Positions 10,111 through 27,592 of a stretch of DNA of 27,592 nucleotides are shown piece by piece (the stretch's first letter is position 1; each line of letters starts with the position of its first letter). The position numbers were made by a program, and so were the translations under genes. Location of the stretch: IMG/VR virus record IMGVR_UViG_2522572164_000008. One strand, written 5' to 3'. The DNA is from a virus (lineage: Duplodnaviria; Heunggongvirae; Uroviricota; Caudoviricetes). The notes beneath the pieces were generated by a model that did no database searches, was not told where the DNA came from, and saw only the letters and a program-made list of their open reading frames with translations.

Positions 10111-10157
10111 TCATCACTGTGGGGCTGTTTAGCCCCCTTAAATAAGGATTACAAATT

Positions 10158-10835
10158 ATGGCAATGGGTCCGTTAACCATTGGTCGCCCGACTGAGGCGA
10201 AAATCAACAGCACAAGCAACGATAGCAACGGTAGAACAACCAAAGGGGGTAACGGCTTTGCGATCATTACCTCTAATCTCGGCAGTGGTGCAAATGCTGC
10301 TTACAATGACTACCAGGCATTATCATTTGATAGCGTGGAATCGACGAAAGTTAGCAGAAATGCGGACGTTACAAGCTATGCCGTCGAATCAGGATCAGAA
10401 GTTAGTGATCATGTTCAAATACGGAATAACAAGTTCACATTACAAGGGCGTATCTCTGAAACCGTATTGAAGCTCAATCCTGATATGATTAAGAATGCTG
10501 GAATTAACGGCAATCGACGTATGCTTATGCTTGAATACCTAAATCAGTTGATGGACAGTCGCCAACCTTTCCTACTTGTCACTGAGTTAAAAAATTATGA
10601 CAACGTTGTGTTAGTTGGCATGTCTTACGAAGAAGAAGCAAGCGAAAGCCTATTGTTTACTCTTGATTTTGAGCAAATCCGTCTTGTCTCTAAAGCAACT
10701 ACAAGCGCAATTGCGGTAAAAACAGCACCAAATAAATCTGTAGGAGGCCAGGTTAAAATGCAGGTAAATACAACAGAACAGAAAAATCAAAAAAGCCCAG
10801 GGCAAGACGTTGTAACGCCAGTATTTAAACAATAG
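10158..10835 (+). CDS. Hypothetical protein (225 aa)
   Basis: RBS TAAGGATTACAAATT-ATG; last gene of the same-strand array. Confidence 0.6.
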   Translation: MAMGPLTIGRPTEAKINSTSNDSNGRTTKGGNGFAIITSNLGSGANAAYNDYQALSFDSVESTKVSRNADVTSYAVESGSEVSDHVQIRNNKFTLQGRISETVLKLNPDMIKNAGINGNRRMLMLEYLNQLMDSRQPFLLVTELKNYDNVVLVGMSYEEEASESLLFTLDFEQIRLVSKATTSAIAVKTAPNKSVGGQVKMQVNTTEQKNQKSPGQDVVTPVFKQ

Positions 10836-10876
10836 CCTTAAACGCCTATGAAACGCTCTGTAACGAGATAATCATA

Positions 10877-10908
10877 AAAGAGGCATCAGTCTATATTGAA
10901 GCCTCTTT
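10877..10908. terminator. Putative bidirectional terminator between convergent genes
   Basis: AAAGAGGC ... GCCTCTTT 8-bp inverted repeat followed by T-rich sequence, between the 225-aa gene stop and the integrase stop. The loop is long (16 nt). Confidence 0.4.
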
Positions 10909-10915
10909 ATTACGT

Positions 10916-11820
10916 CTATAGCGTTGTTTTACGCCTTAAATTTGATTTTTTATTGATTGATAAGCCTTTCTCTATTTCAGGGTAGCGTAAAAGCTCAATA
11001 TATTTTTTAAGCTCTATTGGAGAAGCTGCATTTTTGCTATATGTGCGGAATGTTTCTGTATTGCCGCGTGTATGGCCCAGGAGAAGGGCGATCCTGTCTT
11101 CTGGAATTTGATTTCGATCAAGAAGCTGTGCTACTCCGTGTCTCAGAGAATGAAACACTTTCCTTTCTGTTCCCTTTTCCCCTAAAGCCTTTCGTTTAGC
11201 TCTTGTAAATCGTTGTGTATGCCACGTAGAGCGTTTACCGTCAGCACGTTCTGTAATGCTGGCGTGATAGAACAAAAAGCCATTGTGAGGCTTTTCACGC
11301 AGCGACAACACCAACGGAGTGATAAGGTTATGCACAGGCACAACACGTGCCGCAGCTTTCGTCTTTCCCTGTGTGATTTCAAAACACAGCACACCTTCGA
11401 TCTCTTTCACATCGTCTATTGTGAGACTTGCTATCTCATTGATCCGCATACCTGTATATAAACCGATAAGACACAAAGCCGTCATTTCTTTGTTTTCTGC
11501 TGAATTACCGGAAAATACTTGCAACACCTGCAATAGCTCTTTGTTAGAAAATGCCTCGTAGCTCTCTCTACTTTGTGCCACATCAAGCCTATGCCCTCGC
11601 CAGGGGGAGAGCGCCCTTTCTGGCGCATCGTGGTAACGTGATGAAGCTAATTCCCATAGCTGGGCCATTGGACTGATATAATTTGCAATTGATTGTTGTG
11701 AAAGAGTTTTTTGCATGTGTTCAATCCAGCCTGTAACAGTGGTGCGGCTTACATCTTGCAATGCAATATCAGGCTTTTTACGGTAGGAGAGAAACATCTC
11801 TACCGCTTTTCTTGCCTTAG
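10916..11820 (-). pseudogene. Tyrosine integrase, C-terminal catalytic fragment (separated from its N-terminus by IS5)
   Basis: Contains H-x-x-R (FHSLRHG), LLGH and a C-terminal Tyr (RTYSK) typical of tyrosine recombinases. The first 23 codons of the ORF-track protein are read from inside IS5. Confidence 0.8.
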
Positions 11821-13015
<1,195 letters not shown>

Positions 13016-13479
13016 TTAGCTAAAGTGGCTGGCTTCTTCTTCGTGCTGTTAATTGTCAGGTAGATTTCAAGAATTTTAAGCAATGACGGACACGAAGACG
13101 CTGTATCTTGCACTCTGGTAGCTGTTTTGGCGTATTTAGCCTTACTGCGTAACAGTTCCAGCGTGTTTTCTATTGTGCTGTTTACAGGGGCAACACTCTC
13201 CCGTAAGCAATGGTATTCATCTGCAATCTGATCACGCTTTCTACGTGCAACACGAAGATTACTTGTGTGTAGACTTCTGACAAACGTCCTTTTTCCTTCA
13301 AAAAAGGGCTGCATATACACAGGCAGCGTGATCCTTAAATAGTAGTTACCGTAAGAATCACAGATTAAGTATTGGTTAGGCTTGTATCTCATAAAATCTC
13401 CGGCTAAAGTGTCGGAGCGTTTGTAATGTGAAAATTGATTGTGACGCATAGAAAATGATGATTTTTCTATAAGATTCAA
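13016..13479 (-). pseudogene. Tyrosine integrase, N-terminal fragment (continues at 11820-10916 across IS5)
   Basis: N-terminal integrase-like segment (YYLRITLP...GKRTFVRSL). The ORF-track protein then reads through into IS5 (about 36 aa of IS-derived sequence). Frame arithmetic shows the two fragments are in frame once IS5 and one TTAG copy are removed. Confidence 0.8.
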
Positions 13480-13644
13480 TCAATTAGTAATGGTCGTAGG
13501 TGATGGCATTAACACGAGATTAATCGAGTGTTTTACTCCTATTATCGGCACCATTCTAATGTCTCCCCAAGTCTACTCAAGTATTTAAAAACCTCTTATA
13601 ATCCGCATGTTAGCGCCCCTTTTAGTCTTTTGACGTCTACTTAA

Positions 13645-13719: not shown

Positions 13720-14934
13720 GTGAAACTCAATGCCCGTCAAATAGACACTGCCAAGCCAAAAGAGAAGGCTTACAAGCTGGCTGATGGTGGTGGTCTGTAT
13801 CTCTTGGTAAAACCTAGTGGAGGAAAATATTGGCGCTTCAAGTATCGTGTAGCTGGTAAAGAGAAGCTGTTAGCACTAGGTGTGTATCCTGAAGTTACTT
13901 TGGCTGATGCTCGTGCAAAACGTGAAGAAGCTAAAAGGGGTATCGCTGGGGGTATCGATCCGATGGAAGCGAAACGAGAGGAAAAGATTGCCCGGGAAAC
14001 GCAGTTAAACAACACCTTCAAAGATATTGCCCTTGAGTGGCACAGCAGCAAATTAAAAAAATGGTCTGCTGGTTATGCTTCAGACATCCTCGAAGCCTTC
14101 AACAAAGATGTGTTCCCTTACATTGGCAAAAAACCAATCGCCGAAATCAAACCACTTGAACTGCTGAATGTGCTGCGGCGCATCGAGGGGCGCGGTGCTA
14201 CCGAAAAAGCCAAAAAAGTGAGGCAGCGATGCGGGGAAGTTTTCCGCTATGCAATTGTCACTGGACGTGCTGAGTATAACCCTGCACCGGATCTCACCAG
14301 CGCGATGCAAGGTCATGAATCTAATCATTATCCTTTCCTCACAGCCAAAGAATTACCTGATTTTTTCAAGGCATTGTCCAGTTACTCAGGAAGTGCATTG
14401 GTTGTTATGGCGGCTCGTCTACTGATTATCACCGGTTTGCGGACTGGCGAACTGCGCGGTGCATTATGGGATGAAATCGATCTCAACAAGGCTATCTGGG
14501 AGATACCTGCTTCACGGATGAAAATGCGTCGCCCTCATGTGGTGCCTTTGTCTAAGCAGGCTCTTTCGCTTATTGGGCAGATTAAAGAATTAACTGGCAA
14601 TTATCCGCTTATGTTTCCCGGCCGTAATGATCCAAGGAAAACAATGAGCGAGGCTAGCATAAACCAAGTATTTAAACGCATCGGCTATAACGGAAAGGTT
14701 ACTGGTCATGGATTCCGGCACACCATGAGCACCATTTTGCATGAGCAGGGCTATAACACCGCGTGGATAGAGACGCAGCTCGCACACGTCGATAAAAACT
14801 CAATTCGTGGCACATACAACCATGCGCAATATCTGGATGGACGGCGGGAAATGCTTCAGTGGTACGCCGATTATATGGATTCGCTCGAGCATGGCGGAAA
14901 TGTGGTGCATGGTGAGTTCGGAAAATGCGGGTGA
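13720..14934 (+). CDS. Tyrosine integrase, P4/CP4-57-like family (404 aa)
   Basis: GTG start with GGAGG 9 nt upstream; N-terminus ARQIDTAKPKEKAYKLADGGGLYLLVKPSGGKYWRFKYR typical of P4-type integrases; catalytic R...HGFRHT...Y region near the C-terminus. Confidence 0.9.
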   Translation: MKLNARQIDTAKPKEKAYKLADGGGLYLLVKPSGGKYWRFKYRVAGKEKLLALGVYPEVTLADARAKREEAKRGIAGGIDPMEAKREEKIARETQLNNTFKDIALEWHSSKLKKWSAGYASDILEAFNKDVFPYIGKKPIAEIKPLELLNVLRRIEGRGATEKAKKVRQRCGEVFRYAIVTGRAEYNPAPDLTSAMQGHESNHYPFLTAKELPDFFKALSSYSGSALVVMAARLLIITGLRTGELRGALWDEIDLNKAIWEIPASRMKMRRPHVVPLSKQALSLIGQIKELTGNYPLMFPGRNDPRKTMSEASINQVFKRIGYNGKVTGHGFRHTMSTILHEQGYNTAWIETQLAHVDKNSIRGTYNHAQYLDGRREMLQWYADYMDSLEHGGNVVHGEFGKCG

Positions 14935-15062
14935 CTGGTTGAGTATACAGTAGTAGACTTTGAGCGACGAAAGAAAAGGCTGTGTCTAGGGGCGCTCCCG
15001 AAAATCCGTACATCTCGACGGACTGGTACAGCCACTACAGTAGAGGACGCTGAGGTGTGCGT

Positions 15063-15860
15063 ATGATTGATATTCATGCCGAATTAAACGAATACAAAAA
15101 AGATTTTATTTCTTTACGTGAATTTCTTGAGGTCGTGCTTAAGGTCGCTGGTGATGATTATGATGTTTCAGATGTCATAACTTGGATACTCAGGAGAATA
15201 AGCGGAGAACATATCCGCCTGTACACAGTAAATGAATTTAAGCTGTTGGAATCTTTTTGTAACCCGTATCGGGATGAATTTGATTATGATGTTCTTTATA
15301 GAAATCTGAATGCGGTTCGGAAACGTGGTTGTTTACCTGGTGAGAGGGATGAAAATGGTTTTCTGGTGTCCGGTTATTGGGAAGATCCCGAATTTGAGAA
15401 CATTGGATTTATAAGGGGTGAAATTTTCGCAATTTTTCCCGATGTCCTTGACGCGTTAACGAAGCTGGAAGGCGCTAACTCTTCTGAAAATGACGAGGCA
15501 CAAGGACGCGATATTGAAAAGAAAGAGTTGCGTACAGAGGATGATTTATTATCCCAAATCGCAATGCTGGAAAAAGAAAACGCAGAGTTAAGGGCAAGGA
15601 TAGAGCAGTTAGAGCAAGAGCGCCCGATACACTTATATAAATACTGGGATAAAGACCCATTAGCTAAGGCTATTGAGATTAGAAACAGAGAGTGGGCCAA
15701 TTACGATCCAGAAAATGATTTTGCCACTAGGGGAAATCAAGAAGCGATAACCAGGGAGCTTAAGCAGTGGGGGGCAAGTAATGCTCTTGCAACGCTCATA
15801 GAGAGGACTGCCTGCCCTATTAACCGAGACAACAGCCAAAAGAACGCAAAGCCGGATTAA
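15063..15860 (+). CDS. Hypothetical protein with predicted coiled-coil segment (about 265 aa)
   Basis: ATG at 15063 with GAGGTG 6 nt upstream; coiled-coil-like EDDLLSQIAMLEKENAELRARIEQLEQE. Sits between int and alpA. Confidence 0.6.
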   Translation: MIDIHAELNEYKKDFISLREFLEVVLKVAGDDYDVSDVITWILRRISGEHIRLYTVNEFKLLESFCNPYRDEFDYDVLYRNLNAVRKRGCLPGERDENGFLVSGYWEDPEFENIGFIRGEIFAIFPDVLDALTKLEGANSSENDEAQGRDIEKKELRTEDDLLSQIAMLEKENAELRARIEQLEQERPIHLYKYWDKDPLAKAIEIRNREWANYDPENDFATRGNQEAITRELKQWGASNALATLIERTACPINRDNSQKNAKPD

Positions 15861-15875
15861 CGCACCATACCGCAT

Positions 15876-15985
15876 ACCCTGAGGGTGATTTACTGTTACC
15901 CTGAGGGTATTTTTTTATCTTCCCCGTCAATTTTACCATCACCCTTAGGGTTAATTTCCTTCCGGTAACCATTAGGCCTGAGGGT
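15876..15985. promoter_or_regulatory. Array of ACCCT-N-AGGGT palindromes upstream of alpA
   Basis: Perfect copies at 15876-15886 and 15898-15908, variant ACCCTTAGGGT at 15941-15951, partial at 15977-15985. Confidence 0.5.
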
Positions 15986-16054
15986 ATGAAAATATTCGTT
16001 ATTTCTGTGCCATGATTACCTCGTCAAATTGAGTAGACGTTATGAGGTAAATAT

Positions 16055-16252
16055 ATGTCAAATACGCTTATTCGTTTAACAGAAGTTCAGCGTAGAACTG
16101 GATATAGCAAGGCATGGATTTATCGCCTTATGGGGCAAGGTAAATTTCCTGCATCAGTTAAAATTGGCTCGCGAGCTATTGCTTTCGTTGAGAGTGAAAT
16201 TGACGAGTGGATTAATCAGCGTATTGCTGAATCACGCGGAACAGCTACCTGA
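16055..16252 (+). CDS. alpA: AlpA-family phage transcriptional regulator/excisionase-like HTH protein (65 aa)
   Basis: Sequence LIRLTEVQRRTGYSKAWIYRLMGQGKFPASVKIGSRAIAFVESEIDEWI matches the AlpA family pattern; RBS GAGGTAAATAT-ATG. Confidence 0.85.
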   Translation: MSNTLIRLTEVQRRTGYSKAWIYRLMGQGKFPASVKIGSRAIAFVESEIDEWINQRIAESRGTAT

Positions 16253-16330
16253 TTAAATGGCTACGGGGCCAGAAGCCCCCAGCTATCCACCAGCAAATAA
16301 AAGTAACTTAATTCGATAGCAGGAGTTTTT

Positions 16331-17131
16331 ATGAAACTGCGAAAAACGCCCGTACAGGGGCAGGGCTTCGTTCGGCCTGAAAACCAGAATCTGCAAAATT
16401 TCGGCGAAATTATCCCGGTTATTTCCGGCGTTATTGGCGGGCGTGAAACCAATATTGTTAGCGGCAGAGCGTTGCATAAGGCGTTAGGTGTAGGTCGCGT
16501 TTTCCGTTCGTGGATCAAGGGGCGCATTGAAGAATACGGCTTCACGGAAGGCGTGGATTATGAGGTTGTTGAATATTTGAGCCGACCCGATCCGGTGAGC
16601 GCAAAATCTCGCCAGCAAACAGCTCTTGAGTACATCATTACCGTGAACATGGCGAAAGAACTGGCGATGGTCGAACGCACCGAACAGGGGCGCGCCGTTC
16701 GTCAGTACTTCATCAAATGCGAGGAAGAGCTACACAAGGTTGCGCCTGTACGTTCCGCAGCGTTACGCCGGGAACTGAAAGCCCGTATCACAGTTGCCAG
16801 CTACTTTAAGCCAATGTGTGCCGCGCTGGAGGACTACCGGGCTGAACTGGGTAAAAACACTCTACAGCACCACTACACCACGGAAGCCAATATGCTGGCG
16901 CGTATCGTGCTGGGTGGCATGACTGCAAAACAGTGGGCGCAGGTGAACGGCATCACAGGCGAACCACGCGACCACATGAGCACGTTGCAGCTTGAGCACC
17001 TTTCTTACCTTGAGCAGAGCAATATCACGCTGATTGAGTTAGGCCAGGACTACCACCAGCGGAAGGCTGAATTAATTCGTCTTTCGCAGCGTTGGTTAGC
17101 CCGTCGCATGGAGGAAAACAGCCATGTGTAA
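16331..17131 (+). CDS. Phage antirepressor-like protein (266 aa)
   Basis: RBS AGGAG; N-terminal region resembles prophage antirepressor proteins as recalled. Family assignment tentative. Confidence 0.6.
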   Translation: MKLRKTPVQGQGFVRPENQNLQNFGEIIPVISGVIGGRETNIVSGRALHKALGVGRVFRSWIKGRIEEYGFTEGVDYEVVEYLSRPDPVSAKSRQQTALEYIITVNMAKELAMVERTEQGRAVRQYFIKCEEELHKVAPVRSAALRRELKARITVASYFKPMCAALEDYRAELGKNTLQHHYTTEANMLARIVLGGMTAKQWAQVNGITGEPRDHMSTLQLEHLSYLEQSNITLIELGQDYHQRKAELIRLSQRWLARRMEENSHV

Positions 17132-17590
17132 CGCTCTGACCGTTACAAAAAGAGAAAGCGCCCCGTTGCCGGAGCGCCTTTGTGAACGAATAGCCTACTG
17201 CGCCATATTGCTTACTGTCTACGAGGCAGATTATAGCGTTGTGGTCGCACAGAGTGAAGGCGCTGATCACCGTTACTACAGCACGCCAGAAATGCAGAAT
17301 ATTTTGCTGCAAAATGCCGTTGGCCACGCTGTCCGGAAAGCAAAAAATTTTGCTGGTGGCGCGACTGATGCGATTTTGTCAGGTCGCCAGGTGCTGATCA
17401 ATCTGATGTCTGATTTCGTTCTGGATAAAACAAAGGCGACCGCAGAGAGCCGCCAGTGGAAAAGCTACATACTTGAACGCATCACCAACAATGCCACATT
17501 TGCGGCTGGTGGGCAATGTGTCAGCTTTGCACCAATGACTCTAGGTTTAACTGAGGGTCATTATGGTGAATATGCTGGCTTGCTGGTGGG
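17124..17590 (+). other. Coding-like 5' part of a 1.57-kb stop-free frame; status unresolved, possibly a decayed or fused gene
   Basis: ATG at 17124 overlaps the upstream stop and has GGAGGA 9 nt upstream, but the frame has no stop until 18692 and runs antisense through a plausible minus-strand gene and a promoter region. The end coordinate is arbitrary. Confidence 0.3.
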
Positions 17591-17848
17591 CTATTCCTGC
17601 TCTTTAACATCGCCATGCCGCGATGTTTTCCAGGTATGCGACCCCATTTTTGTGCGCCTGTACTCTTTAAGGAATTTCTCAAGGATAAACGCACAGGGCG
17701 CGAATCTGTCTGACTCATGCTCGTACGCTATCTTTCTGCGCTGTCTTTTCCGTGCCGGTGATGGTGTATTGGTTGATTCTTTGTTGGTCATGGCGCTGCC
17801 CTGTAAAACGATGCACCGTAGTTCCTCACACCACGGCGCTGGTGATGG

Positions 17849-18154
17849 TTACTCCTGTTCTTTGGCCTTGCGCCGCTGGAGTTCTTCACGCGCGACGGTG
17901 ACGAGTTGCCCGATCTCCTCGGCTGCTTTGACACCGATTTTTTCCACCTGCGCCAGTGCATCGAGCGAAGAAACCAGGGGATTTTCTCCGCTTCCTTCTG
18001 CCTGGCGGCGGGCGATTTCACCGCGAACGGCTGTAATCACGAAAGCGGCTATTGTTTCCCCTTCCGTTTTCGAATTTTCCATTTCCTCGATTACATCATG
18101 GGGGAAGCGGATATTTTTCATTTGCGATCTGCTGTTGATGTTTCCTGTTGCCAT
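17849..18154 (-). CDS. Putative ribbon-helix-helix-type regulator with C-terminal coiled coil (101 aa)
   Basis: MKNIRFPHDVIEEMEN strand-helix pattern; divergent from the downstream plus-strand operon across a palindrome-rich region. No clear SD. Confidence 0.6.
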   Translation of the reverse strand: MATGNINSRSQMKNIRFPHDVIEEMENSKTEGETIAAFVITAVRGEIARRQAEGSGENPLVSSLDALAQVEKIGVKAAEEIGQLVTVAREELQRRKAKEQE

Positions 18155-18176
18155 CAGAATGTCCGGTTATTTTGAG

Positions 18177-18279
18177 GTGTGTACACATTACACCAAAAGG
18201 TGTGTTGATAAAACACTTGACACTGTAGCACACTTAAATCTAATCTGTATATACACTAATGATTGTGGTGTATATACAG
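18177..18279. promoter_or_regulatory. Divergent promoter/operator region with three palindromes
   Basis: Perfect 12-bp inverted repeat CTGTATATACAC (18245-18256) / GTGTATATACAG (18268-18279) with 11-bp spacer; TGTGTACACA (18177-18186); ACACCAAAAGGTGT (18190-18203); TTGACA at 18217-18222 with a TAATCT -10 candidate 18 bp downstream. Confidence 0.55.
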
Positions 18280-18346
18280 CAACGCCCCGCAGTGGTGGCA
18301 CACATGCAGGGCGTCTAACCAAACCGTTAAACGAGGTAACGATTAT

Positions 18347-18692
18347 GGCTGGAACACAGCATACCCAAACTCACCCTAAATTTATATACACCTTCCTGGC
18401 GGTGCACCGTGATTGCATAGCTGACGGTAAAAACACTGTACACGTAGCCGCTGATACGCTGGTTGATGCCTGCGAGATGCTCAATGACATGGGCTATATC
18501 TCGGCAACATGGAAAGGGCGCGAAGAAAACACGCTGTTTATTCAGAAATGCGAGAACAATTTTATCTGGCGTTTTATCGCCCTGAGCACAGCACAACCGC
18601 GCGTAATTCACATCGAGGCCACCAGCGAACAGGAAGCGCGTCAGCAATCTCCTGATGGCTGCGTGATGGTATTCGCTGCCCGTATTCGCTAG
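18347..18692 (+). CDS. Hypothetical protein (115 aa)
   Basis: ATG at 18347 with GAGGTAACGATT upstream; this is the 3' part of the long stop-free frame and is probably the real gene. Confidence 0.5.
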
Positions 18693-18702
18693 GAGGTGCA
18701 CC

Positions 18703-19068
18703 ATGCATAACCTGTCAATTTATGACCTTAACAGCATTCAGTTTCGTGAGAAATTCACCGAGCAGCTACTGGTTAACGTGGAGAATGGACGCGTGGTAAG
18801 TAATTATCACCTGCCGGATGGTGCAATTGCCGGAAGCGTTGAAGCATTGCTGGAACTGGCAGAACGTGCGCGACTTATTAAGCCGTTAACGAACCATCAC
18901 GATGATGATCTGCATTTTACCGGACGCATGGTGAGTCACTACGAAAACGGCGTCGAGGTATCCCGCGAACGGCTGCGTGATGATTGCTGTTTCGGAACAC
19001 TGCCGGAATTTAGCGAACTGCTGACCCGTTGCGATTACCGGATCATTCAGGGGGGAAGTCATGGGTAA
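18703..19068 (+). CDS. Hypothetical protein (121 aa)
   Basis: Strong RBS TAGGAGGTGCACC-ATG. Confidence 0.6.
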   Translation: MHNLSIYDLNSIQFREKFTEQLLVNVENGRVVSNYHLPDGAIAGSVEALLELAERARLIKPLTNHHDDDLHFTGRMVSHYENGVEVSRERLRDDCCFGTLPEFSELLTRCDYRIIQGGSHG

Positions 19069-19261
19069 TCAGCCAGCAACAATGACAATTACCCTGAATG
19101 TGCCAGATGATTTCACCGGGCGCGTACTGGTTTACCTGGATAAAGGGAAAGTGAAATCACAATGCCGACTGCGAAATAATGAAATTGTAAGTACGGTAGA
19201 AGGCTTTTCTGAACTATGTATTCGTGCAGGAATAAAACCGGAACTGCTGACAGGAAAATAA
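19061..19261 (+). CDS. Hypothetical small protein (66 aa)
   Basis: RBS GGGGGGAAGTC-ATG; start overlaps the upstream gene end. Confidence 0.5.
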   Translation: MGNQPATMTITLNVPDDFTGRVLVYLDKGKVKSQCRLRNNEIVSTVEGFSELCIRAGIKPELLTGK

Positions 19262-19265
19262 AACC

Positions 19266-19556
19266 ATGAAAAAGAAAAATTCTGGCTTTACTGCCAGCGG
19301 CCTCTCTCGGTCTGCAATTCGCTCTGGCGATATTTACCGCGACACCAGACGTGGGGGACGAGTGGTTATTCGTCACGTTACGCCAGGCAATATCACCTAC
19401 CGCCGTGAGGCTTACGAATATGACTGCGTAATGCCGCGCCGTCAGTTTGAGCGTGATTTTATTCTGGTGGAAAACAAACAATTGGCGGTGGCAAGACGTG
19501 CAGCCTCGAATATTAAAAAAATCCGGGCAATGTTGGTTGCGGGAGGTAAGAAGTGA
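19266..19556 (+). CDS. Hypothetical small basic protein (96 aa), possibly of a conserved island-associated family
   Basis: Motif GDIYRDTRRGGRVVIRHV...YEYDCVMPRRQFERDF resembles small proteins recalled from P4-integrase islands; stop overlaps the start of the next gene. Confidence 0.5.
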   Translation: MKKKNSGFTASGLSRSAIRSGDIYRDTRRGGRVVIRHVTPGNITYRREAYEYDCVMPRRQFERDFILVENKQLAVARRAASNIKKIRAMLVAGGKK

Positions 19557-21685
19557 AAAACGCACCGAATTTAAAATATCAGCCAAAGGATAAATTCACC
19601 GAGGTAATCATTTTTGCCGGGACGGATGCTTACGCCCATGCTCAACACTGGATTGAAAGCGAAGGACGAAAACACGGCGATAACGTGCCACCTGTTTACC
19701 TGGGGCCAACGCAACTGGCAGATCTGGCTAATATCCGCATTATCGACGATGAGCGCCGCTTTGCGCGTGTTTATATCGCGGGGGAGATAGAGCCAATCCA
19801 GATCAATGCTATCGCTGAAAAGCTGGCGCTGGCTGGCGTACAGGATGCGAAATTATACAAAGGCATCACCGACCGGGAGCCGGAGAACTGGCGCGACTAC
19901 CTGCAACGGATCCGCGAACAGGCAGAGCGCGGGGAAACCATTCCTGAAGGAATCGGAATAGCTGGTGGATCACCCGGTAAAACAGACCCCATGAAACCGC
20001 ATATTACCGAAAAAGACGGGGCGCTCTGGTATATCGAGCCAATCCCCAACACCAGGGCAGAGGAGATGAATTATAAAGAAACCTGGCTGAGTGACCGGAT
20101 GCGCACGGCAGGTATTGGTAACGACGGAAGGGAAGCGTATCTGATCATTGAAATGATCCCGGAAGGGACACAAAAAATTATTTACGAAGCGATGCCGCGC
20201 AATGAAATCGGTATGCCCGCAGGATGGGCGCGATTACGTGGGCGGGGAGTTGCAATCACTACCAGTGCCCATTTACTGAACAAACTGGCGGAATACCTGC
20301 AACGTCATGGAGATCGCACGGTGTGGGAGGTCACATCAACAGCAGGTTGGCATTGTGGAGCCTATGTTATGCCTGATGGCGAGGTGATTGGTGTGCCTGA
20401 CCGTCCCGTAGCATTCTGCGGCGGATCTGCCGCCATCAAAGGCTATATTGTCAGGGGCACGGTGCATGAATGGCGAAATAATGTTGCTTCTCTGATGCGT
20501 GGCAATCACTCAATGATGCTTGGGGTGCTGGTCGGGCTGGCAGCCCCGCTAAATTCCCTTGTGGGTGGTAGTTGTTTTGGTATTCATCTTTTCGCGCAGT
20601 CGTCAGCGGGGAAAACCACGACTGTGGAGGCCGCCACCAGCCTTTATGGCGACCCTGAAATGCTTAAACTCTCGTGGGATGCCACCCGGCACGGGCTGAC
20701 AGTGGAAGCAGCTGCACGTAATGACGGTTTTATCCCTATTGATGAAATTGGTCAGGGAGGAAGGGTTAATGACATTGCGCAATCCGCCTACAGCCTGTTT
20801 AACGGTGTGGGCAGGATTCAGGGGCGCAAGGACGGCGGTAATCGTGCGGTAATGCGCTGGAAAATAGCGGCACTAAGCACCGGAGAAGAAGATTTTGAAA
20901 CCTTCCTGTTAAAAGGGGGAATTGCCCCAAAGGCAGGGCAACTGGTGCGACTGCTAAGCATTCCCTTTACCGATACAACGGTGTTTAACGGTTATGACGA
21001 TGGTGATCAACATGCCAGGGCCATAAAGCGACTTTCATCAAATTATTGTGGCGCTGCGGGACGTGAGTGGGTGCGCTGGTTATCCGCTCACAAGGAGCTG
21101 GCTATCAACACCACTTCAGATAAAGAAAATGCCTGGCTGGGAAATCTGCCTGAAAATGCCTCGTCACAGGTAAGGCGAGTGGCATCGCGATTCGCCATGC
21201 TGGATGCAGCCGGAGAGCTTGCCACCGCAATTACTGGCTGGACAGCTGAAGAATGCCGGGAAGCAACGCAACGGGCTTTTGATGACTGGCTACAGGATTT
21301 CGGGCTGGAAAACCGGGAAAAATATCAGGTCATCAGTCGCGCCCGTGACTTTATTCAGCGCCATGCCCTGAGTCGTTTTCAGCCTTATACCTACGGGAAA
21401 AGCAATGGGGATATGGATAACCACTATGCATCCCGTATAAGCAATCTTGCAGGCTATCTTGTCAGCGGTAAGCGTGAGGATGGAAAACCCGAATATCACA
21501 TTATCCCGTCAGTGTTTGATAGCGAAATTTTATGCGGTATATCCAGGAACTTTGGGTGTCAGGCGCTGGAAGAAGCCGGAATGCTGGTTTGTGCAGAACC
21601 TGGTCGCTGGACATCGAAAACAGTGAAGATTAACGGAACACAGCAGCGATTTATCGTGCTGATTGATCAGGCAGAAGACGAATAG
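19553..21685 (+). CDS. Replication protein, primase/helicase-like P-loop NTPase (710 aa)
   Basis: GTG start with GGAGGT upstream; Walker A GxxxxGKT (FAQSSAGKTTTVE); large N-terminal domain; followed directly by an iteron array. Confidence 0.75.
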   Translation: MKNAPNLKYQPKDKFTEVIIFAGTDAYAHAQHWIESEGRKHGDNVPPVYLGPTQLADLANIRIIDDERRFARVYIAGEIEPIQINAIAEKLALAGVQDAKLYKGITDREPENWRDYLQRIREQAERGETIPEGIGIAGGSPGKTDPMKPHITEKDGALWYIEPIPNTRAEEMNYKETWLSDRMRTAGIGNDGREAYLIIEMIPEGTQKIIYEAMPRNEIGMPAGWARLRGRGVAITTSAHLLNKLAEYLQRHGDRTVWEVTSTAGWHCGAYVMPDGEVIGVPDRPVAFCGGSAAIKGYIVRGTVHEWRNNVASLMRGNHSMMLGVLVGLAAPLNSLVGGSCFGIHLFAQSSAGKTTTVEAATSLYGDPEMLKLSWDATRHGLTVEAAARNDGFIPIDEIGQGGRVNDIAQSAYSLFNGVGRIQGRKDGGNRAVMRWKIAALSTGEEDFETFLLKGGIAPKAGQLVRLLSIPFTDTTVFNGYDDGDQHARAIKRLSSNYCGAAGREWVRWLSAHKELAINTTSDKENAWLGNLPENASSQVRRVASRFAMLDAAGELATAITGWTAEECREATQRAFDDWLQDFGLENREKYQVISRARDFIQRHALSRFQPYTYGKSNGDMDNHYASRISNLAGYLVSGKREDGKPEYHIIPSVFDSEILCGISRNFGCQALEEAGMLVCAEPGRWTSKTVKINGTQQRFIVLIDQAEDE

Positions 21686-21717
21686 CACAACCTACGCTCG
21701 CAGAGGGTCAAAAATCG

Positions 21718-21990
21718 CGGGATATGCGGGATATCGGGATATGGAAATATATTGCATAAATATCAGTTATTTATGTGTTGTTGTCGTATCCCGCTGTATC
21801 CCGCCGTATCCCGGTATTTAGGTTTACGAGTGGTTGTAAAACAAACAAAATAACCGTATCCCGGAATGTATCCCGCAATATCTTATTGATGCATAAGCAA
21901 AAAAAAACTTACCGGGATATGGCGGGATATGAAAAATCACATAACGCTATGAAATAAATGGGTTTTTTTTGTTTATATCCCGATATCCCG
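21718..21990. repeat. Iteron array: 12 copies of the octamer CGGGATAT (or its complement) in alternating blocks, with A/T runs; candidate replication origin
   Basis: Forward copies at 21718, 21727, 21735, 21913, 21923; reverse copies at 21787, 21797, 21807, 21857, 21868, 21975, 21983; A- and T-runs at 21899-21907, 21963-21970 and 22005-22013. Confidence 0.7.
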
Positions 21991-22143
21991 GTAAAAAATG
22001 TTTTTTTACGCCTTATAGAGTACAGAAAAAAAGGTTGTTCAAATTTTGTATTACGATTGACTACTGTCAGCCATCCCACCCGGAAAAGGCATAAAAGCTG
22101 ACAGGTAACTGACAATGAGACTGTTTTATTTTTACGTGCCGAT

Positions 22144-22701
22144 ATGACGGCAACAATGATGGGGCAGAGCATGACAAAACTGACCATTAACAGAAAACCG
22201 AAAGGTATTTACGGCACGCCGCAGAAAACGACGCAGGCGGCACAGAAGCAGGATAAAACCACATCGGCACATAAAGTGATGCCCGGTAACCAGAAAGCGC
22301 AGCAGAAGCCCACAGGGGCGACACCGTGGCGGCATATGACCAAACGCCAGCGCAAAAACCGCAGGCGCGTTAACCGTCTCACTGAGTTGTGGCCTGAATT
22401 ATTCAGCCGGGAAGCACCGAAGCCACTTAAGGTGGGGATATTCGACGACCTGATGCAGGATATCGCCGTCAGGGGGCTGGCATTCGGTCCAGGGGCATTA
22501 CGTGCGACGCTGGCATCTTATGCGCAGTGTCCGCGCTATTACCGCGCCTTAATGGCTGGTGGGGTGCGCTATGACCTGAAAGGCCAGCCGTGCGGCGAGG
22601 TGACACCACAGAAACAGAACGAGGCAGAAATGCGGCTGATGGCGCTGAATGAGAAGCGCAAACGCCAGCGCCGGGCAGCCAGGGAGAAAACAGGCGCATG
22701 A
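22144..22701 (+). CDS. FinO/ProQ-domain RNA-binding protein-like (185 aa)
   Basis: Core PLKVGIFDDL...LRATLASYAQCPRYYRALMAGGVRYDLKGQPCGEV follows the ProQ/FinO domain pattern as recalled; basic N-terminal tail. Start codon uncertain. Confidence 0.65.
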   Translation: MTATMMGQSMTKLTINRKPKGIYGTPQKTTQAAQKQDKTTSAHKVMPGNQKAQQKPTGATPWRHMTKRQRKNRRRVNRLTELWPELFSREAPKPLKVGIFDDLMQDIAVRGLAFGPGALRATLASYAQCPRYYRALMAGGVRYDLKGQPCGEVTPQKQNEAEMRLMALNEKRKRQRRAAREKTGA

Positions 22702-22985
22702 TTCACGACAGCAAAGCGGAAGCACTGGAAGCGCGTGGACTGTACCGGAGAGCGGCGGCGCGGTGGGCTGAGGTCATCATGCTGGCGAATGATGACAAGG
22801 CACGGGAACAGGCGGCAAAACGTCGCGCGGAATGTATCCACAAGGCAGCACGCCCACCAGCAAGGCAGGATAATTTCGGGGAGATGCGCGAAACCATCAG
22901 CCGGGCACATGCCGGGATGGGATTACATCAGCCCAATGGTGAGGCATTCAGGAAATACCAAAAAAAGAACAATTGTAGTCAGTAA
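22698..22985 (+). CDS. PerC-like transcriptional activator-like small protein (95 aa)
   Basis: N-terminus AEALEARGLYRRAAARWAEV resembles PerC/Pch-family activators as recalled; ATG overlaps the upstream stop (ATGA). Confidence 0.5.
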   Translation: MIHDSKAEALEARGLYRRAAARWAEVIMLANDDKAREQAAKRRAECIHKAARPPARQDNFGEMRETISRAHAGMGLHQPNGEAFRKYQKKNNCSQ

Positions 22986-23119
22986 CAGAGGATGGGATTC
23001 TCTTGGTTTTTTGTTGATGCTTTCTGAGGAAATCTACTACGTTGCTGAGCAGATGAATATTCAATTGCATCTGGGTTCCTGATAAGATTAATCTGAATAT
23101 TTTCATTTGGAATAGGGAT

Positions 23120-23923
23120 ATGAATAAAACTTTAATTGCAACATTAGTCGGTATAGTAATGTTAACCGGATGTGGGCCAGAAGAGTTAACTCCAGAACAG
23201 AAACAGGAAGTAGCTGCTCTTAAAGCTGAACTGTCGCAAACGGAAGGTGAAATATCAGCAGCTAAGGAAGTTGACCAGCAGTTTTCTGGTGGGTTGATAA
23301 AAAATCTGACAACAGCAAGACTGGAAATATTAGGAACTAATAAAGCGCTTTTGGAACAGCGTATTAATGCTATTGAATCAGGTGCCAAAATTGATGTTGT
23401 TGTATCTGGAGTAAAACCTGATCCTGAGCTTGCGGCTTCAATTAAAACTGAAATTGACAGCTTAGATGCAAAAATCAACGAAGCCAAAGCTGATGCTCGT
23501 CAGTATAGTGGTGGTCTGATAAAGGTACTAAAATTATCTACTGTTGCCACTGAAGAGCAGACCATGGCAATGTTGCAGCAAAAGTACCTCACAGCCAAGT
23601 ATGGCCTCGCTGAAGTTAAGCTGGCATCAGTACAAGCTAATGACGCAAAAAACAGTACTGAAACGGAAGTAACAGCCAAAAATTCCCAAGAGCAACTTCC
23701 TTTACTCCCGCCAGCGGATGGTCCGTTTGGCTTAGAAGCCGGTCTTACACAGAAAAACATCGAAGATATGATCGGTGCTAAGCTCAAGCCACTACCAGAC
23801 AGTGTGAATCTGTATACTTCTGATAAATTACCGAAGCAAAACGCAGATTTTGAAATGTATGGTTTGCTGATCTCCCCGAAAGCTGGTTTATGTCAAATAC
23901 GGGCTTTAGGAAAAAAATATTGA
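23120..23923 (+). CDS. Lipoprotein (267 aa) with internal sequence repeats
   Basis: Signal peptide plus lipobox (MLTGC); internal repeat QQFSGGLIKNL / RQYSGGLIKVL; AT-rich relative to neighbours; RBS AGGGAT. Confidence 0.7.
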   Translation: MNKTLIATLVGIVMLTGCGPEELTPEQKQEVAALKAELSQTEGEISAAKEVDQQFSGGLIKNLTTARLEILGTNKALLEQRINAIESGAKIDVVVSGVKPDPELAASIKTEIDSLDAKINEAKADARQYSGGLIKVLKLSTVATEEQTMAMLQQKYLTAKYGLAEVKLASVQANDAKNSTETEVTAKNSQEQLPLLPPADGPFGLEAGLTQKNIEDMIGAKLKPLPDSVNLYTSDKLPKQNADFEMYGLLISPKAGLCQIRALGKKY

Positions 23924-23939
23924 TACTGATAGCTATGGA

Positions 23940-24263
23940 TTGGCTCTTAAATCCAAGTTTGAAGAATTGAGTAATTCTTTAAGTTCTCTGTATGGAAAGG
24001 CTGATACTACAGACTTTTTGCTGGCTGGTTCAATTTGGAAAGATCCTCAGGACTGGATGAGGGGGCTAAACAAAAAAGAACGCTTCTTATCTGCCACATG
24101 GAAGGGAACAAAAGAAATACCATTAAAAAACAATATTGATACTATATCTATTGAGGCCAGAGCGAACAATTCCACTCAGGGATATGTCTATCTGCAGTAC
24201 TCATTTACAAATGACGAAATTTGTCAGGCAGAAATTGAAGGGGCGAAAAAAAGTTCCCTTTAA
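23940..24263 (+). CDS. Hypothetical protein (about 107 aa, start uncertain)
   Basis: Open frame right after the lipoprotein gene; the first codon in the track is a non-ATG start; followed by a clear terminator. Confidence 0.35.
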   Translation: MALKSKFEELSNSLSSLYGKADTTDFLLAGSIWKDPQDWMRGLNKKERFLSATWKGTKEIPLKNNIDTISIEARANNSTQGYVYLQYSFTNDEICQAEIEGAKKSSL

Positions 24264-24275
24264 ACAATCCGTGCA

Positions 24276-24300
24276 AAGCCCCTTAGTAAGGGGCTTTTAT
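24276..24300 (+). terminator. Rho-independent terminator
   Basis: AAGCCCC-TTAGTAA-GGGGCTT stem-loop followed by TTTTAT. Confidence 0.6.
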
Positions 24301-24327
24301 ATATTAATGTTCAACGTGGGGGATTAG

Positions 24328-24651
24328 ATGAAAGATAATCTAGCAAAACTAATTGAAAATACTTTAAAAGATATTCTATTAGCTAATGCTGCTCTAACAT
24401 TCATTTTTGCAATACCAATGGCTATTATCAGTAGGCATGGGATGGGCATCACAATCTGGTTTATAACTGTGCTCATTGCACCTGCTCTGTGTGCAGTAGG
24501 TGCATGGCTTGTATCTCGAACATCCGGCCATGCTGAGGAGTTCTTTCATCGTCGGTGGGCTAAGCGAATTTATGTTTTTTATACTCTTGCGGCTGCCGAG
24601 TTTTTGCTTGTGTACTCAATCGCGCAAATAATGAAAAATCTGATGAAATAA
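24328..24651 (+). CDS. Small membrane protein (107 aa, two to three predicted TM helices)
   Basis: Hydrophobic segments AALTFIFAIPMAII and ITIWFITVLIAPALCAVGAWLV; RBS GGGGGATTAG-ATG. Confidence 0.6.
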   Translation: MKDNLAKLIENTLKDILLANAALTFIFAIPMAIISRHGMGITIWFITVLIAPALCAVGAWLVSRTSGHAEEFFHRRWAKRIYVFYTLAAAEFLLVYSIAQIMKNLMK

Positions 24652-24840
24652 TTAACAAGTTATTATCATGGAGCTTGTGGCTGTTAACCTGCAGTGAGGC
24701 GACAATCGTGTATTTATAAAAACTTCCCCTTTTCACTCCCCGCAGCTTCTTCTGCTATTGCCTTTATGTTTGCATGCACCAACATCTGCCATACCTTTGC
24801 AGAAAAATCAGAGCATTCAGTGCCGAAGGTTGGTTTATTG

Positions 24841-24933
24841 ATGCTTTTCGTTTCATTTGTTGCAATTGTCTCTGGTATCATTTCAATTTGTGCAATAATT
24901 GCAATTATTGTCATTCAGAAGGGATCATCATGA
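24841..24933 (+). CDS. Possible 30-aa single-pass hydrophobic peptide (alternative 55-aa form from ATG 24766)
   Basis: MLFVSFVAIVSGIISICAIIAIIVIQKGSS; stop overlaps the next ATG (ATGA). RBS spacing is suboptimal. Confidence 0.3.
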   Translation: MLFVSFVAIVSGIISICAIIAIIVIQKGSS

Positions 24934-25097
24934 AAAATCACGGAGTAAAGCCAGTTTTACTTTCCCGGAGGCAGATCGAAGCCCTGCAACGCATCCAGGA
25001 CGAAGAGCGTCAGAAATCTGTGCTTGGTGTGGCACCGTCGATTCATGTTATCGCTCGGCAACTGATGGATAAGGCACTTAAAGAGGTGAGACTGTGA
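24930..25097 (+). CDS. Hypothetical small protein (55 aa)
   Basis: ATG with AGAAGGGA upstream; overlaps both neighbours through ATGA and GTGA junctions. Confidence 0.4.
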   Translation: MKNHGVKPVLLSRRQIEALQRIQDEERQKSVLGVAPSIHVIARQLMDKALKEVRL

Positions 25098-25366
25098 AAT
25101 TAAATATCAGAGTGGATAAACGCCAGCTATGGCAGAAAAAAGAGAACAGCGAGGCATTCAGGGCGTTGCTGGTGGAAAATCTTCAGCATCGGTTCAGTGG
25201 AGAGTTGCCTGATGCTCTAGGGAAGAAACTGGAATCCCTGACGGTGGAAATTGGCGATTATGGCTTTGTTGATGTTGAAAGCACGACTGCCAACACAGAA
25301 ATCGTAAAACAGGTCGTCAATGATGTAATGAAAACCACGCTTAGCCAGCCATCCTGGCGCAACTGA
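25094..25366 (+). CDS. Hypothetical protein (90 aa)
   Basis: GTG start with AGAGGTGAG upstream; followed by a hairpin. Confidence 0.5.
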   Translation: MKLNIRVDKRQLWQKKENSEAFRALLVENLQHRFSGELPDALGKKLESLTVEIGDYGFVDVESTTANTEIVKQVVNDVMKTTLSQPSWRN

Positions 25367-25372
25367 ATCAGT

Positions 25373-25397
25373 AAGGGGCGGTTATTGCCCCTTTCCT
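25373..25397 (+). terminator. Putative terminator hairpin
   Basis: AAGGGGC-GGTTATT-GCCCCTT stem-loop followed by a weak T-rich tract. Confidence 0.45.
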
Positions 25398-25465
25398 CCA
25401 TACCCACAACGCATTCCCTTTCCGCATGAAATTATTTTTTATCGTATATGCATGAGGTGAGCTAC

Positions 25466-25993
25466 ATGTTGATGAGTAAAGCCGAATACGCCAAATACAA
25501 AGGCGTAAGCCGCCAGACAGTTTACGACTGGCTCGAGAAAGGCGAAGTGGTCATGTCCGGTAAAAAAATTGATGTGGAAGCGACAGAGCAGCGGAACAGC
25601 CCACCAGCACAGGGGAAAGACACCATTTCTGAAATGTGGCCAGAAAGAACGCTGGAAATGACATGGGGCGAGTTCTGGAAAGCAGTTAAGGCCAGAGACG
25701 GTAAAATTCCTGCGCCAGTAACGGACGAGGGCATACAGCAGCGTGTGCTGTATGCAGCCGGGGAATTAGGCTGGGAAGTGCACTTTCTTGATGATGGTGC
25801 TATCTGCCTTGAGGATGATGAAGGGCAGCATTACTTTGAAAAATACAATTTGCGAGGTAATGCCAGGCTGGCAATTCGTATGCTGCGTTGCGAACTCTGC
25901 TATGTTGCAGGTGATTATCCCGATGAACCGGAATCATGGAGTGAAGCCGGGTTAAACGCCCTGGCTGAGTGGGAAAAATCAGACCATCAATGA
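25466..25993 (+). CDS. HTH DNA-binding protein (about 175 aa), terminase-small-subunit-like or regulator-like
   Basis: N-terminal HTH SKAEYAKYKGVSRQTVYDWLEKGEV; GAGGTGA upstream; its stop is followed immediately by an array of direct repeats. Functional call speculative. Confidence 0.55.
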   Translation: MLMSKAEYAKYKGVSRQTVYDWLEKGEVVMSGKKIDVEATEQRNSPPAQGKDTISEMWPERTLEMTWGEFWKAVKARDGKIPAPVTDEGIQQRVLYAAGELGWEVHFLDDGAICLEDDEGQHYFEKYNLRGNARLAIRMLRCELCYVAGDYPDEPESWSEAGLNALAEWEKSDHQ

Positions 25994-25997
25994 CATC

Positions 25998-26221
25998 AAA
26001 AAGTGTCAAGTTGAGCAGCTTGCCGGGTTGACACTTTACACTCTGAACACGAAAAAGTGTCAACCTCGCTGTAAGCCCCGCCGTTACTGGCCTTGCGCCA
26101 GATTTACCACGTCAAAAAGCCGAAAAAATCGCGAAAAGTGTCAAGTTGCCATGCTTAGAAATGCCAGGGGAGGTTAAGTTTTGTTAAGGTTTTTCCCGAA
26201 AAAGTGTCAAGTGTGTCAACC
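25998..26221. repeat. Array of six copies of GAAAAAGTGTCAA(G/C)-type repeats (one inverted)
   Basis: Copies at 25998-26010, 26028-26039 (inverted), 26053-26066, 26133-26145, 26198-26211 and 26211-26221. Confidence 0.6.
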
Positions 26222-26596
26222 CGCGATATACAGATTTATTAAGGTTTTGAGCCAGAAAGAGTTAACCGCGCCGCTTTAGAAAACTTCAGGCACGCATTTG
26301 TGAAAGCATCAAATGAAGTTCTGTCATACTTTGCAAATCATGCAGATGCATCGTTACTGAGCATTTTAAGTTACAGTTGATGCGGACTGTCCACTTTAAC
26401 CTTTCAAAACGTTTCGTAGTAGGTACTAACTAGAATGCCAAGAGTCTTTCAGGTTCCGTGATGTTTAGCGTTGGATTTGATATTAAGTGTTTAAATTCAA
26501 TGTGTTACATTGTATTATAAAGTTTATTGCTAACAACTGTAGGGTAGATGCCAAGCGCACGCTAAGCATGTTATAATCATTTCAACTTTCATAATA

Positions 26597-27592
26597 ATGG
26601 ATACGAGAGTGGCGACGATAATCAAAAATATAGCAATCAAAGGTCTTTTTAAACGGAAGGACATTGATTGGAGTTTAAAAGATGTGAATGTTTTAGTGGG
26701 TAAAAATGGCTCAGGTAAGAGCACGATAATTCAAAGTGTTTTTGCCCTCTTAAAACAAGAATTAAATGAAAGTTTAAGTAATGCTGCGTTGGCTCAAATA
26801 ACATTGGCCAATGGAGGCACAATTACTCACAAAGTTAATTTTCGCGAAATTGACTCTGTCCAGCTTCTAAACCTACTTAATAACCTTAAGAAAAACAGTA
26901 TTAAAGGTAAATCAAAGGGTAAGGAAATAAAGGAGTTAAATGAACTTATTGAGTTGCTTGAATCGAAAAAAGAAGACACTGAAATTAAAGAGTTCGGGAT
27001 GGGAACTGTTAGCGTAAGTGATAATATTAAAAACACTAAGCGAATAAATGTTGAGTTAATATCAACTATCAATATGAGTGCCAATTCCATCTATGAATTC
27101 AAAAAAAGTGATGGTGAGCGCACCACAATTCTTGATATGGAAATTGCTGGTGAATTAGAAAGGTTAAAGAATACTTTCAAAGTAAGTGAGTCTAAAGGTA
27201 TTCTCATAAAGGATAAGTTGGAATCAGCTATAAATAATTTATTTTCTGAATGTAACAAAGTTGTTTCTTTTAGTAATGGTAACATTTCTATTAAGATGAG
27301 TGATTCTGGTGAAGATATTAGGTATAATCTTCTTTCATCAGGTGAACGTCAGTTGTTATATATTCTGATTAAAACAGCTAATACTTCATTGGATGAATCT
27401 GTCTTGTTGATGGATGAGCCAGAAATATCCTTGCACCTTACGTGGCAAGAAAGATTAATAAGCACCATCAAATCAATTAACGATAATTGTCAGTTAATTA
27501 TTGTTACTCATAGTCCTGCAATATTAATGAAAGGCTGGATGGATTCTTTCGTAGATATAAAAAATATTTCAAAGGAATCTTCTCATGACTGA
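26597..27592 (+). CDS. ABC-type/SMC-like ATPase (331 aa), defence-associated type
   Basis: Walker A GKNGSGKST, ABC signature LSSGERQ, Walker B LLMDEPE, H-loop IVTHSP; very AT-rich versus island backbone; TATAAT at 26573-26578 upstream. Confidence 0.85.
   Translation: MDTRVATIIKNIAIKGLFKRKDIDWSLKDVNVLVGKNGSGKSTIIQSVFALLKQELNESLSNAALAQITLANGGTITHKVNFREIDSVQLLNLLNNLKKNSIKGKSKGKEIKELNELIELLESKKEDTEIKEFGMGTVSVSDNIKNTKRINVELISTINMSANSIYEFKKSDGERTTILDMEIAGELERLKNTFKVSESKGILIKDKLESAINNLFSECNKVVSFSNGNISIKMSDSGEDIRYNLLSSGERQLLYILIKTANTSLDESVLLMDEPEISLHLTWQERLISTIKSINDNCQLIIVTHSPAILMKGWMDSFVDIKNISKESSHD
27585..27592 (+). CDS. Start of a translationally coupled downstream gene (truncated by the window end)
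   Basis: ATG at 27585 overlaps the ATPase stop (ATGACTGA) with AAGGAA 8 nt upstream; only 2.7 codons visible. Confidence 0.3.

Follow-up and report, generated by a model that had tools for sequence, protein, structure and literature searches.

A predicted PARIS anti-phage pair with a short AriA-type ATPase in a thrW island of enteroaggregative Escherichia coli

The window analysed here is a stretch of 27,592 nucleotides of DNA from a virus of the class Caudoviricetes (IMG/VR record IMGVR_UViG_2522572164_000008), which ends with a gene for an ATP-binding cassette (ABC) ATPase. This open reading frame (ORF) very probably encodes the AriA-type ATPase of a PARIS (phage anti-restriction-induced system) anti-phage pair, in which the second protein is a predicted AriB-type nuclease of the DUF4435/TOPRIM kind, and the pair is the sole cargo of a slot in a satellite-like island at thrW in enteroaggregative E. 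coli (EAEC). PARIS pairs are an already known kind of system that existing tools detect. The PARIS of E. coli B185 is activated by the phage anti-restriction protein Ocr, and its AriB cleaves tRNA (Lys, Thr and Asn).

Assignment of the ATPase and its partner to PARIS

Among the PADLOC models, AriA (PDLC04164) matches the ATPase best, at 4e-43 and 145.8 bits, followed by PtuA (89.8 bits), mad3 (82.1 bits) and NsnB (77.8 bits). In Pfam, the protein matches AAA_21 at 74.2 bits and AAA_15 at 71.9 bits. The product of the downstream partner gene scores 62.6 bits against DUF4435 (PF14491, cut-off 27) and is matched in PADLOC by AriB models only (PDLC04165, 3.6e-22; PDLC02983, 4.9e-17). The published detection rule for PARIS (Rousset et al. 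2022, PMC9122126) is an AAA_15 match of at least 32 bits or an AAA_21 match of at least 27 bits next to a DUF4435 match of at least 27 bits, and by this rule, as by PADLOC, the pair belongs to the family. The AriA and AriB models of PADLOC give higher scores to this short pair than to a canonical-type PARIS pair. A preliminary description made from the window alone had proposed that the ABC ATPase and a gene downstream of it form a phage-defence system of the ATPase-plus-effector type, and had suggested a profile search against defence models and an extension of the sequence. Both agreed with it, since the search returned AriA as the top match and the extension gave a DUF4435/TOPRIM-type protein, not a permease.

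Comparison with solved structures points to the same family. A search of the PDB with the single ATPase sequence finds AriA (8ux9, 8v45-49) as the best relative, at 4e-17 and in the C-terminal half only, and a profile of 45 ATPase homologues finds it at 8e-31 (111 bits), with retron PtuA next at 4.6e-15 (59 bits). The AlphaFold 2 (AF2) model of the ATPase has a mean predicted local distance difference test score (pLDDT) of 86 and a predicted template modelling score of 0.82, and its top Foldseek matches are AriA chains (1e-13), with PtuA close behind (about 1e-10). The catalytic motifs are intact: all four stand where the preliminary description had placed them, and K41 of Walker A, D273/E274 of Walker B, the LSSGERQ signature and H305 of the H-loop are invariant across the 45 homologues. 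Mutant data for the corresponding AriA Walker B residues (D392/E393) are found in PMC10802264.

The two genes form a same-strand operon with ariA upstream of ariB, a layout that is shared by the homologous loci L004, L009, L011 and L012. At 27585-27592, ATGACTGA carries the partner's ATG (27585), which overlaps the end of the ATPase gene (TGA, 27590-27592), with an AGGA 7 nt upstream. This start codon with its Shine-Dalgarno sequence had been read as the sign of a co-translated second gene, and it indeed opens a gene of 981 nt (L001 11186-12166 in E. coli 55989) that encodes a DUF4435 protein of 326 amino acids (aa), WP_000134255.1. The last 973 nt of the gene lie beyond the window and were read from E. 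coli genomes that match the window's last 2.2 kb, namely the chromosomes of O104:H4 outbreak strains and of EAEC 55989. Over 2,193 bases, the window end shows one difference from 55989, which is intergenic, and none within the ORF from O104:H4.

Residues E30, D34 and D83 (in DSDFD) of the partner and its GH motif are invariant, and MAFFT aligns the three acidic residues with E25, D29 and D90 of canonical-type AriB. The sequences used for this comparison were taken from IMG/VR, where canonical-type PARIS was found; a tblastn search of the phage collection with a fragment of B185 AriA gave remote matches only. In B185 AriB, the two-metal TOPRIM site is made up of E26, D30, D88, E90 and E122. The first three of these correspond to E30, D34 and D83 of the partner, and the last two match, by position and spacing, D85 and E115, which are also invariant in the family. 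In the PADLOC and Pfam scans of the partner, no HNH, RloB, OLD-TOPRIM or helicase model matched, and its PADLOC matches included no AbiL, OLD or Gaj model. Because the window does not encode the partner, a homologue with 89% identity was modelled instead (AF2, pLDDT 75, with a poorly predicted N-terminus). Judging from the two models, the ATPase and its partner share the fold of the solved AriA and AriB. In the homologue search, the partner's own sequence was missing at 100% identity, which is explained by an apparent clustering artefact of the database: the 90%-identity cluster of the ATPase (P0001) also lists DUF4435 partner proteins.

Four more mobile settings keep the pair together, with identities of 42-76%. 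In Proteus mirabilis (ATPase identity 76%), it lies 3' of the tail-tip genes of a lambdoid prophage, and in Citrobacter (56%) between the tail genes S and V of a P2-like prophage. An E. coli version (45%) is found on a Rep3 plasmid-like contig among insertion sequence (IS) elements, and one from Acinetobacter (42%) adjoins Arc and P22-AR-like genes. Shewanella xiamenensis (L005 5001-7582) carries a 317-aa ATPase homologue with no ORF of at least 80 aa in the 1.6 kb downstream; this is either an orphan ATPase or a case of a decayed partner gene, with decay the probable explanation.

Read from its ATG, the ATPase has 331 aa, and its TGA ends with the final base of the window. RefSeq uses an alternative start, GTG 26609, which gives a 327-aa protein (WP_000190961.1) and fits the N-terminal consensus of the homologues, MxxxIKxIxIK, slightly better; the longer N-terminus is covered by 332-aa homologues at 79% identity. 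The ORF was described from the outset as much richer in AT than the island around it, and its G+C fraction (GC) is 0.323 against 0.476 for the island backbone (13720-26000). It had also been credited with a TATAAT of its own. Upstream of the ORF, TGTTATAAT at 26569-26577 is an extended -10 of the TGnTATAAT type, part of a promoter-like site with 10 of 12 consensus matches; however, the region holds 12 such sites against 12.4 in shuffled sequence, so the promoter call is a consensus match only. The one position at which the last 2.2 kb differ from E. coli 55989, 26514 (A against G), lies about 35 nt upstream of this site.

A number of points weigh against the assignment to PARIS. Only in its two halves can the ATPase be aligned with AriA, residues 4-88 to AriA residues 5-90 and residues 198-318 to 318-440. 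None of the Ocr-contact residues of B185 AriA has an aligned counterpart in the short ATPase: R345 and R346 belong to a stretch that is inserted in AriA when compared with the short family, and R212, R213 and R244 in the unaligned middle. All but the start of the partner gene lies outside the window, and the gene was read from matching genomes. Searched against the PDB at E ≤ 10, as a single sequence or as a 15-member profile, the partner finds no solved AriB, and hhalign of the partner family with canonical-type AriB, as a single sequence or a three-sequence profile, returned probabilities below 1%. The hhalign comparison is uninformative because the profiles are too shallow, and the alignment of the TOPRIM residues was for this reason based on MAFFT. 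With no structure matched by sequence, the case for homology between the partner and AriB is therefore built on the hidden Markov models for DUF4435 and AriB, the conserved motifs and the structure comparison, and in the model the N-terminal TOPRIM part has a pLDDT of 38-55. Finally, Rousset et al. tested PARIS from E. coli O42 and B185, which belong to clades other than the short-AriA clade; a literature search found no experimental or structural characterisation of the latter, and a search with the RefSeq accessions returned zero papers.

The pair might instead belong to another defence family with an ABC ATPase, such as Septu PtuAB, Menshen, MADS, AbiL or the Gabija/OLD class, and resemble PARIS only through its AAA_15/21 ATPase. 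The matches of the ATPase to PtuA, mad3 and NsnB, the closeness of PtuA structures to AriA in Foldseek and the lack of detectable sequence similarity between the partner and solved AriB would fit this explanation. It is nevertheless improbable, as the best PtuA model falls 56 bits short of the AriA model, the family profile clearly separates AriA from PtuA, and the partner matches AriB and DUF4435 models without any sign of the nucleases or the helicase of the other families. The ATPase and the TOPRIM protein are also separate, unlike those of the class 1 and class 2 OLD nucleases. Septu, Menshen, MADS and retron PtuA were rejected for their lower scores and wrong partner type.

If anything a shade less likely is that the pair derives from PARIS and no longer serves in active phage defence, but is a toxin-antitoxin-like addiction module that stabilises the island, or a silent remnant. 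AriA and AriB have been described as toxin-antitoxin-like by Deep et al., the distant PARIS of E. coli O42 is inactive from its native promoter, and the Shewanella homologue lacks an evident partner. On the other side, neither protein has lost any of its catalytic motifs, which do not vary among the homologues, the pair recurs in known defence slots of phages and satellites, and sister islands carry other defence genes in the same slot. It is hardly credible, by comparison, that the ATPase is a housekeeping ABC protein, either the ATPase of a transporter with its permease or a repair protein of the RecF/RecN/SMC type. Weak matches to ABC_tran (24.5 bits) and SMC_N (44.5 bits) and to transporter and UvrA/RecF models of NCBIfam (26-41 bits) are found, but ABC_tran stays below its cut-off of 25 bits, and the NCBIfam matches all fall far below theirs (172-1147 bits; for transporter equivalogs at most 41 bits against 190-693). 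The preliminary description had named a permease partner, or orthology to a transporter or repair protein, as what would speak against defence; what is found next to the ATPase is a DUF4435 protein, with no permease annotated nearby, and the gene sits in AT-rich mobile cargo present in 19 of 5,426 complete E. coli genomes. On these equivalog scores and this partner, a transporter or repair ATPase was rejected.

The short helical insert of the ATPase

With 327-331 aa, the ATPase is about 118 (to 130) aa shorter than the 464-aa AriA of B185, and the loss falls in the helical region. A profile alignment places about 109 residues between the two ATPase halves here and about 227 in AriA. The deletion is given by its size only (about 118 aa) and without borders, because the gap placement by MAFFT probably mis-pairs the ISTINM strand. 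In AriA, the helical region consists of a three-helix insertion and a four-helix coiled-coil bundle, and it is the bundle that builds the AriA6:AriB3 propeller. The model of the ATPase has two short helical hairpins only, formed by residues 87-123 and 178-219.

A word-indexed search found 2,898 relatives of the ATPase, and the best 120 of these have 203-362 aa, the full-length ones about 306-362 aa. An exhaustive search of representatives gave 2,672 clusters at E ≤ 1e-10, of which 93 reached E ≤ 1e-30, with lengths of mostly 300-360 aa in the top 150 clusters. The short ATPase is no single-gene oddity: its family is large, with members of about 300-360 aa that are in each case located on a mobile element, whether a prophage, a plasmid-like contig or the island here. 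The suggestion that it might be a distinct or minimal variant holds insofar as it is shorter than the structurally characterised AriA, but not in the sense of an exception, since it is part of a large family that the PADLOC models favour.

The insert had been noted as rich in lysine and glutamate, and the two make up 37% of residues 87-135 as opposed to 19% of the entire protein. The least conserved stretch of the ATPase in the family is formed by residues 51-150; at the Lys/Glu-rich hairpin, column conservation is 0.22-0.41, versus 0.7-1.0 in the ATPase motif blocks. The hairpin (87-123) is a candidate sensor surface. Burman et al. found the trigger-facing parts of AriA to be poorly conserved across 11 PARIS clades. 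Given the insert that is about 118 residues shorter and the unaligned Ocr contacts, the trigger, and possibly the oligomeric architecture, are expected to differ from those of B185: a different trigger seems likely, and the oligomeric architecture is uncertain. One speculative possibility is that the clade with an AriA of about 330 aa is a minimal PARIS without the B185-type coiled-coil interface, which might use a different assembly (for example, an AriA dimer capping AriB), sense another class of trigger through the Lys/Glu hairpin and perhaps cut another RNA target.

The thrW island and its cargo slot

The pair occupies a swappable cargo site at the right end of a family of thrW islands, between a gene for a 175-aa helix-turn-helix protein and attR. 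Homology to the same island in strain MFDS1006657 ends at 26267 and returns at L001 12404 (which would be position 28803, beyond the window end), about 80 nt before attR, and on entering the module, the GC drops from 0.48 to about 0.33. From these break points, the cargo module consists of the promoter-like site, ariA and ariB alone. The flank was found in 166 of the 5,426 complete E. coli genomes and the cassette in 19. In sister islands (L010 6859-9493; L013-L016), the slot holds other cargo: GapS1, DUF4747 with a hypothetical protein, an Orc1/Cdc6-like ATPase, a 662-aa protein with an RNA-binding domain, or two hypothetical proteins. Several of these occupants, including DUF4747 with its hypothetical neighbour, have no match in PADLOC, and several may be uncharacterised defence genes.

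About 320 nt past the stop codon of the partner lies tcctattatcgcaccat, an attR-like repeat that imperfectly copies the 3' end of thrW, a tRNA-Thr gene. The thrW gene itself flanks the opposite side of the insertion (attL), and a truncated LysR gene and paoD follow beyond attR. The repeat makes the pair the last cargo before the attR of the island; the next features in the 3' direction are attR and a yagP remnant. The island genes within the window are listed together with the features of the pair in Table 1.

Table 1. Features of the ATPase gene, its product and the surrounding island (positions are those of the window)
Feature	Position	Strand	Remarks
Promoter-like site, ATGCCA-18-TATAAT with TG extended -10	26548-26577 (L001 10149-10178)	+	Best consensus match of the region, 10/12
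ariA-like ABC ATPase gene, 331 aa from ATG	26597-27592	+	PADLOC AriA; family profile against PDB AriA; Foldseek
Walker A, GKNGSGKST, residues 35-43	26699-26725	+	Aligned to AriA GKNGAGKST; K41 = AriA K39
Lys/Glu-rich helical hairpin, residues 87-123	26855-26965	+	AF2 helices 87-101 and 108-123, pLDDT 60-82
ABC signature, LSSGERQ, residues 246-252	27332-27352	+	Aligned to AriA LSSGERQ
Walker B, LLMDEPE, residues 270-276	27404-27424	+	D273/E274 = AriA D392/E393
H-loop, IVTHSP, residues 302-307	27500-27517	+	H305 invariant
Shine-Dalgarno AGGA (27574-27577) and first 8 nt of ariB-like gene (ATG 27585)	27574-27592	+	Gene read in matching genomes
AT-rich variable cargo module, left part	26268-27592, about 1.2 kb more beyond the window to just before attR		Homology break and GC drop
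Integrase	13720-14934		Island gene
int-alpA RNA	14979-15046		Rfam RF02996, 44.2 bits, above gathering; between integrase gene and next ORF
AlpA	16055-16252		Island gene
AntA-type antirepressor	16331-17131		Island gene
Icd-like gene	C-terminal end of ORF 17124-18692		Island gene
DUF4222	19266-19556		Island gene
DUF927 primase	19553-21685		Island gene
ProQ/FinO	22144-22701		Island gene
PerC	22698-22985		Island gene

The view of the island as a phage satellite, which had been assumed from the window alone, is reasonable: it has an integrase, an int-alpA RNA, AlpA, a DUF927 primase and a tRNA-Thr attachment site. In Pfam and PHROGs scans of island ORFs, however, none of the P4 hallmark families Psu, Delta and Sid turned up, and the island is therefore called satellite-like, of the phage-inducible chromosomal island (PICI) type, and not P4-like. 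As evidence of packaging functions, only a weak small-terminase-like match was found (phrog_57, 2.2e-06).

Several irregularities were observed in the rest of the window. The 522-aa ORF at 17124-18692 is absent from the RefSeq annotation, which has two small minus-strand genes there, one of them YlcI/YnfO. Only its last 50 or so residues find matches (Icd-like and phage repressor PHROGs, 1e-25), and most of the ORF is probably not a gene. At 23910-23917, the window has a run of seven A residues where O104:H4 and 55989 have six, a frameshift that splits the gene for a 380-aa hypothetical protein (WP_001044338.1) into ORFs 23120-23923 and 23940-24263; either the gene is truly a pseudogene or the extra A is a sequencing error in a homopolymer. 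Positions 1-13500 are taken up by a second integrase-bearing element, in tandem between thrW and the PARIS island, with a recombinase, hypothetical proteins of 613 and 343 aa, a 'phage baseplate protein' and 35% GC at about 1000-6000. Its integrase gene is interrupted at 11821-13013 by a 1,193-bp IS5-family (ISKpn26-like) element with a transposase ORF at 11889-12869 (326 aa) and inverted repeats GGAAGGTGCGAA. This insertion is absent from the O104:H4 reference genomes and present in strain 1070/13.

Public records give the two proteins no more than generic names, 'AAA family ATPase' for one and 'DUF4435 domain-containing protein' for the other. In strain 55989 and the O104:H4 outbreak lineage, PARIS would be a concrete annotation for them, and since PARIS makes infections by phages with anti-restriction proteins abort, its presence bears on phage host range and phage therapy in this lineage. 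The slot at the right end of the thrW islands looks like a compact and easily mined site of defence cargo, and the short AriA clade could reveal what AriA can do without when it sequesters AriB and when it senses a trigger.

Predicted mechanism and comparison with known systems

The mechanism of PARIS has been worked out for E. coli B185 (PMC11464382, PMC10802264, PMC12409363), and it is from this system that we infer every functional step, the trigger and the target for the short clade. An ATP-bound oligomer of AriA would dock AriB at the head-to-head interface of the ATPases and thereby hold it in a monomeric, inactive state. A phage protein would then bind the variable helical region of AriA, and with ATP turnover, AriB would be released. 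Free AriB would dimerise into a two-metal TOPRIM RNase that nicks specific host tRNAs, and the cutting of tRNA would stop translation and abort the infection.

The B185 system (8ux9, 8v45-8v49) is the nearest solved structure for both the ATPase and the partner. It has the same order, with the ABC ATPase first and the DUF4435/TOPRIM protein second in a two-gene operon; the Walker A, Walker B, signature and H-loop motifs can be aligned, the acidic TOPRIM residues are conserved as in the pair described here, and it is likewise the cargo of a satellite or prophage hotspot. It differs in its 464-aa AriA, which has about 118 residues more in the helical region, and in the arginines of AriA that contact Ocr, which have no counterpart here, and its solved AriB is undetectable from the partner, whether pairwise or by profile-to-sequence comparison. 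It also sits on a P4-like satellite, while the pair here lies on an int-AlpA-primase island at thrW in which psu, delta and sid were not detected.

PARIS-1 of E. coli O42 (Rousset et al. 2022) is also a divergent PARIS of an enteroaggregative strain, and its AriB shares FEGxDD and DxD-type motifs. As this example shows, PARIS clades that are far apart differ in the phage profiles of their defence. It belongs to another clade, in a P4-like hotspot, and its AriB, which is about 12% identical to the canonical type, is unlike the partner here. Identity of the pair with the tested PARIS-1 was ruled out, as the AriB sequence differs.

More distant likenesses are found outside PARIS. PtuA of Septu and of retrons, which shares the AAA_15/21 ABC ATPase fold and likewise has a helical insert, is the second-best match in sequence and in structure, but it scores well below AriA, and in place of a DUF4435 protein it is paired with either PtuB, an HNH nuclease, or the reverse transcriptase of a retron. 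OLD, Gabija GajA, AbiL and MADS3-4, which Burman et al. placed in one super-group of systems that combine an ABC ATPase with a TOPRIM, follow a common logic, that of an ABC ATPase sensor joined to a TOPRIM nuclease effector. In OLD and GajA, the ATPase and the TOPRIM are fused in a single polypeptide, to which Gabija adds the GajB helicase, whereas the pair in the thrW island divides them between separate proteins of 331 and 326 aa.

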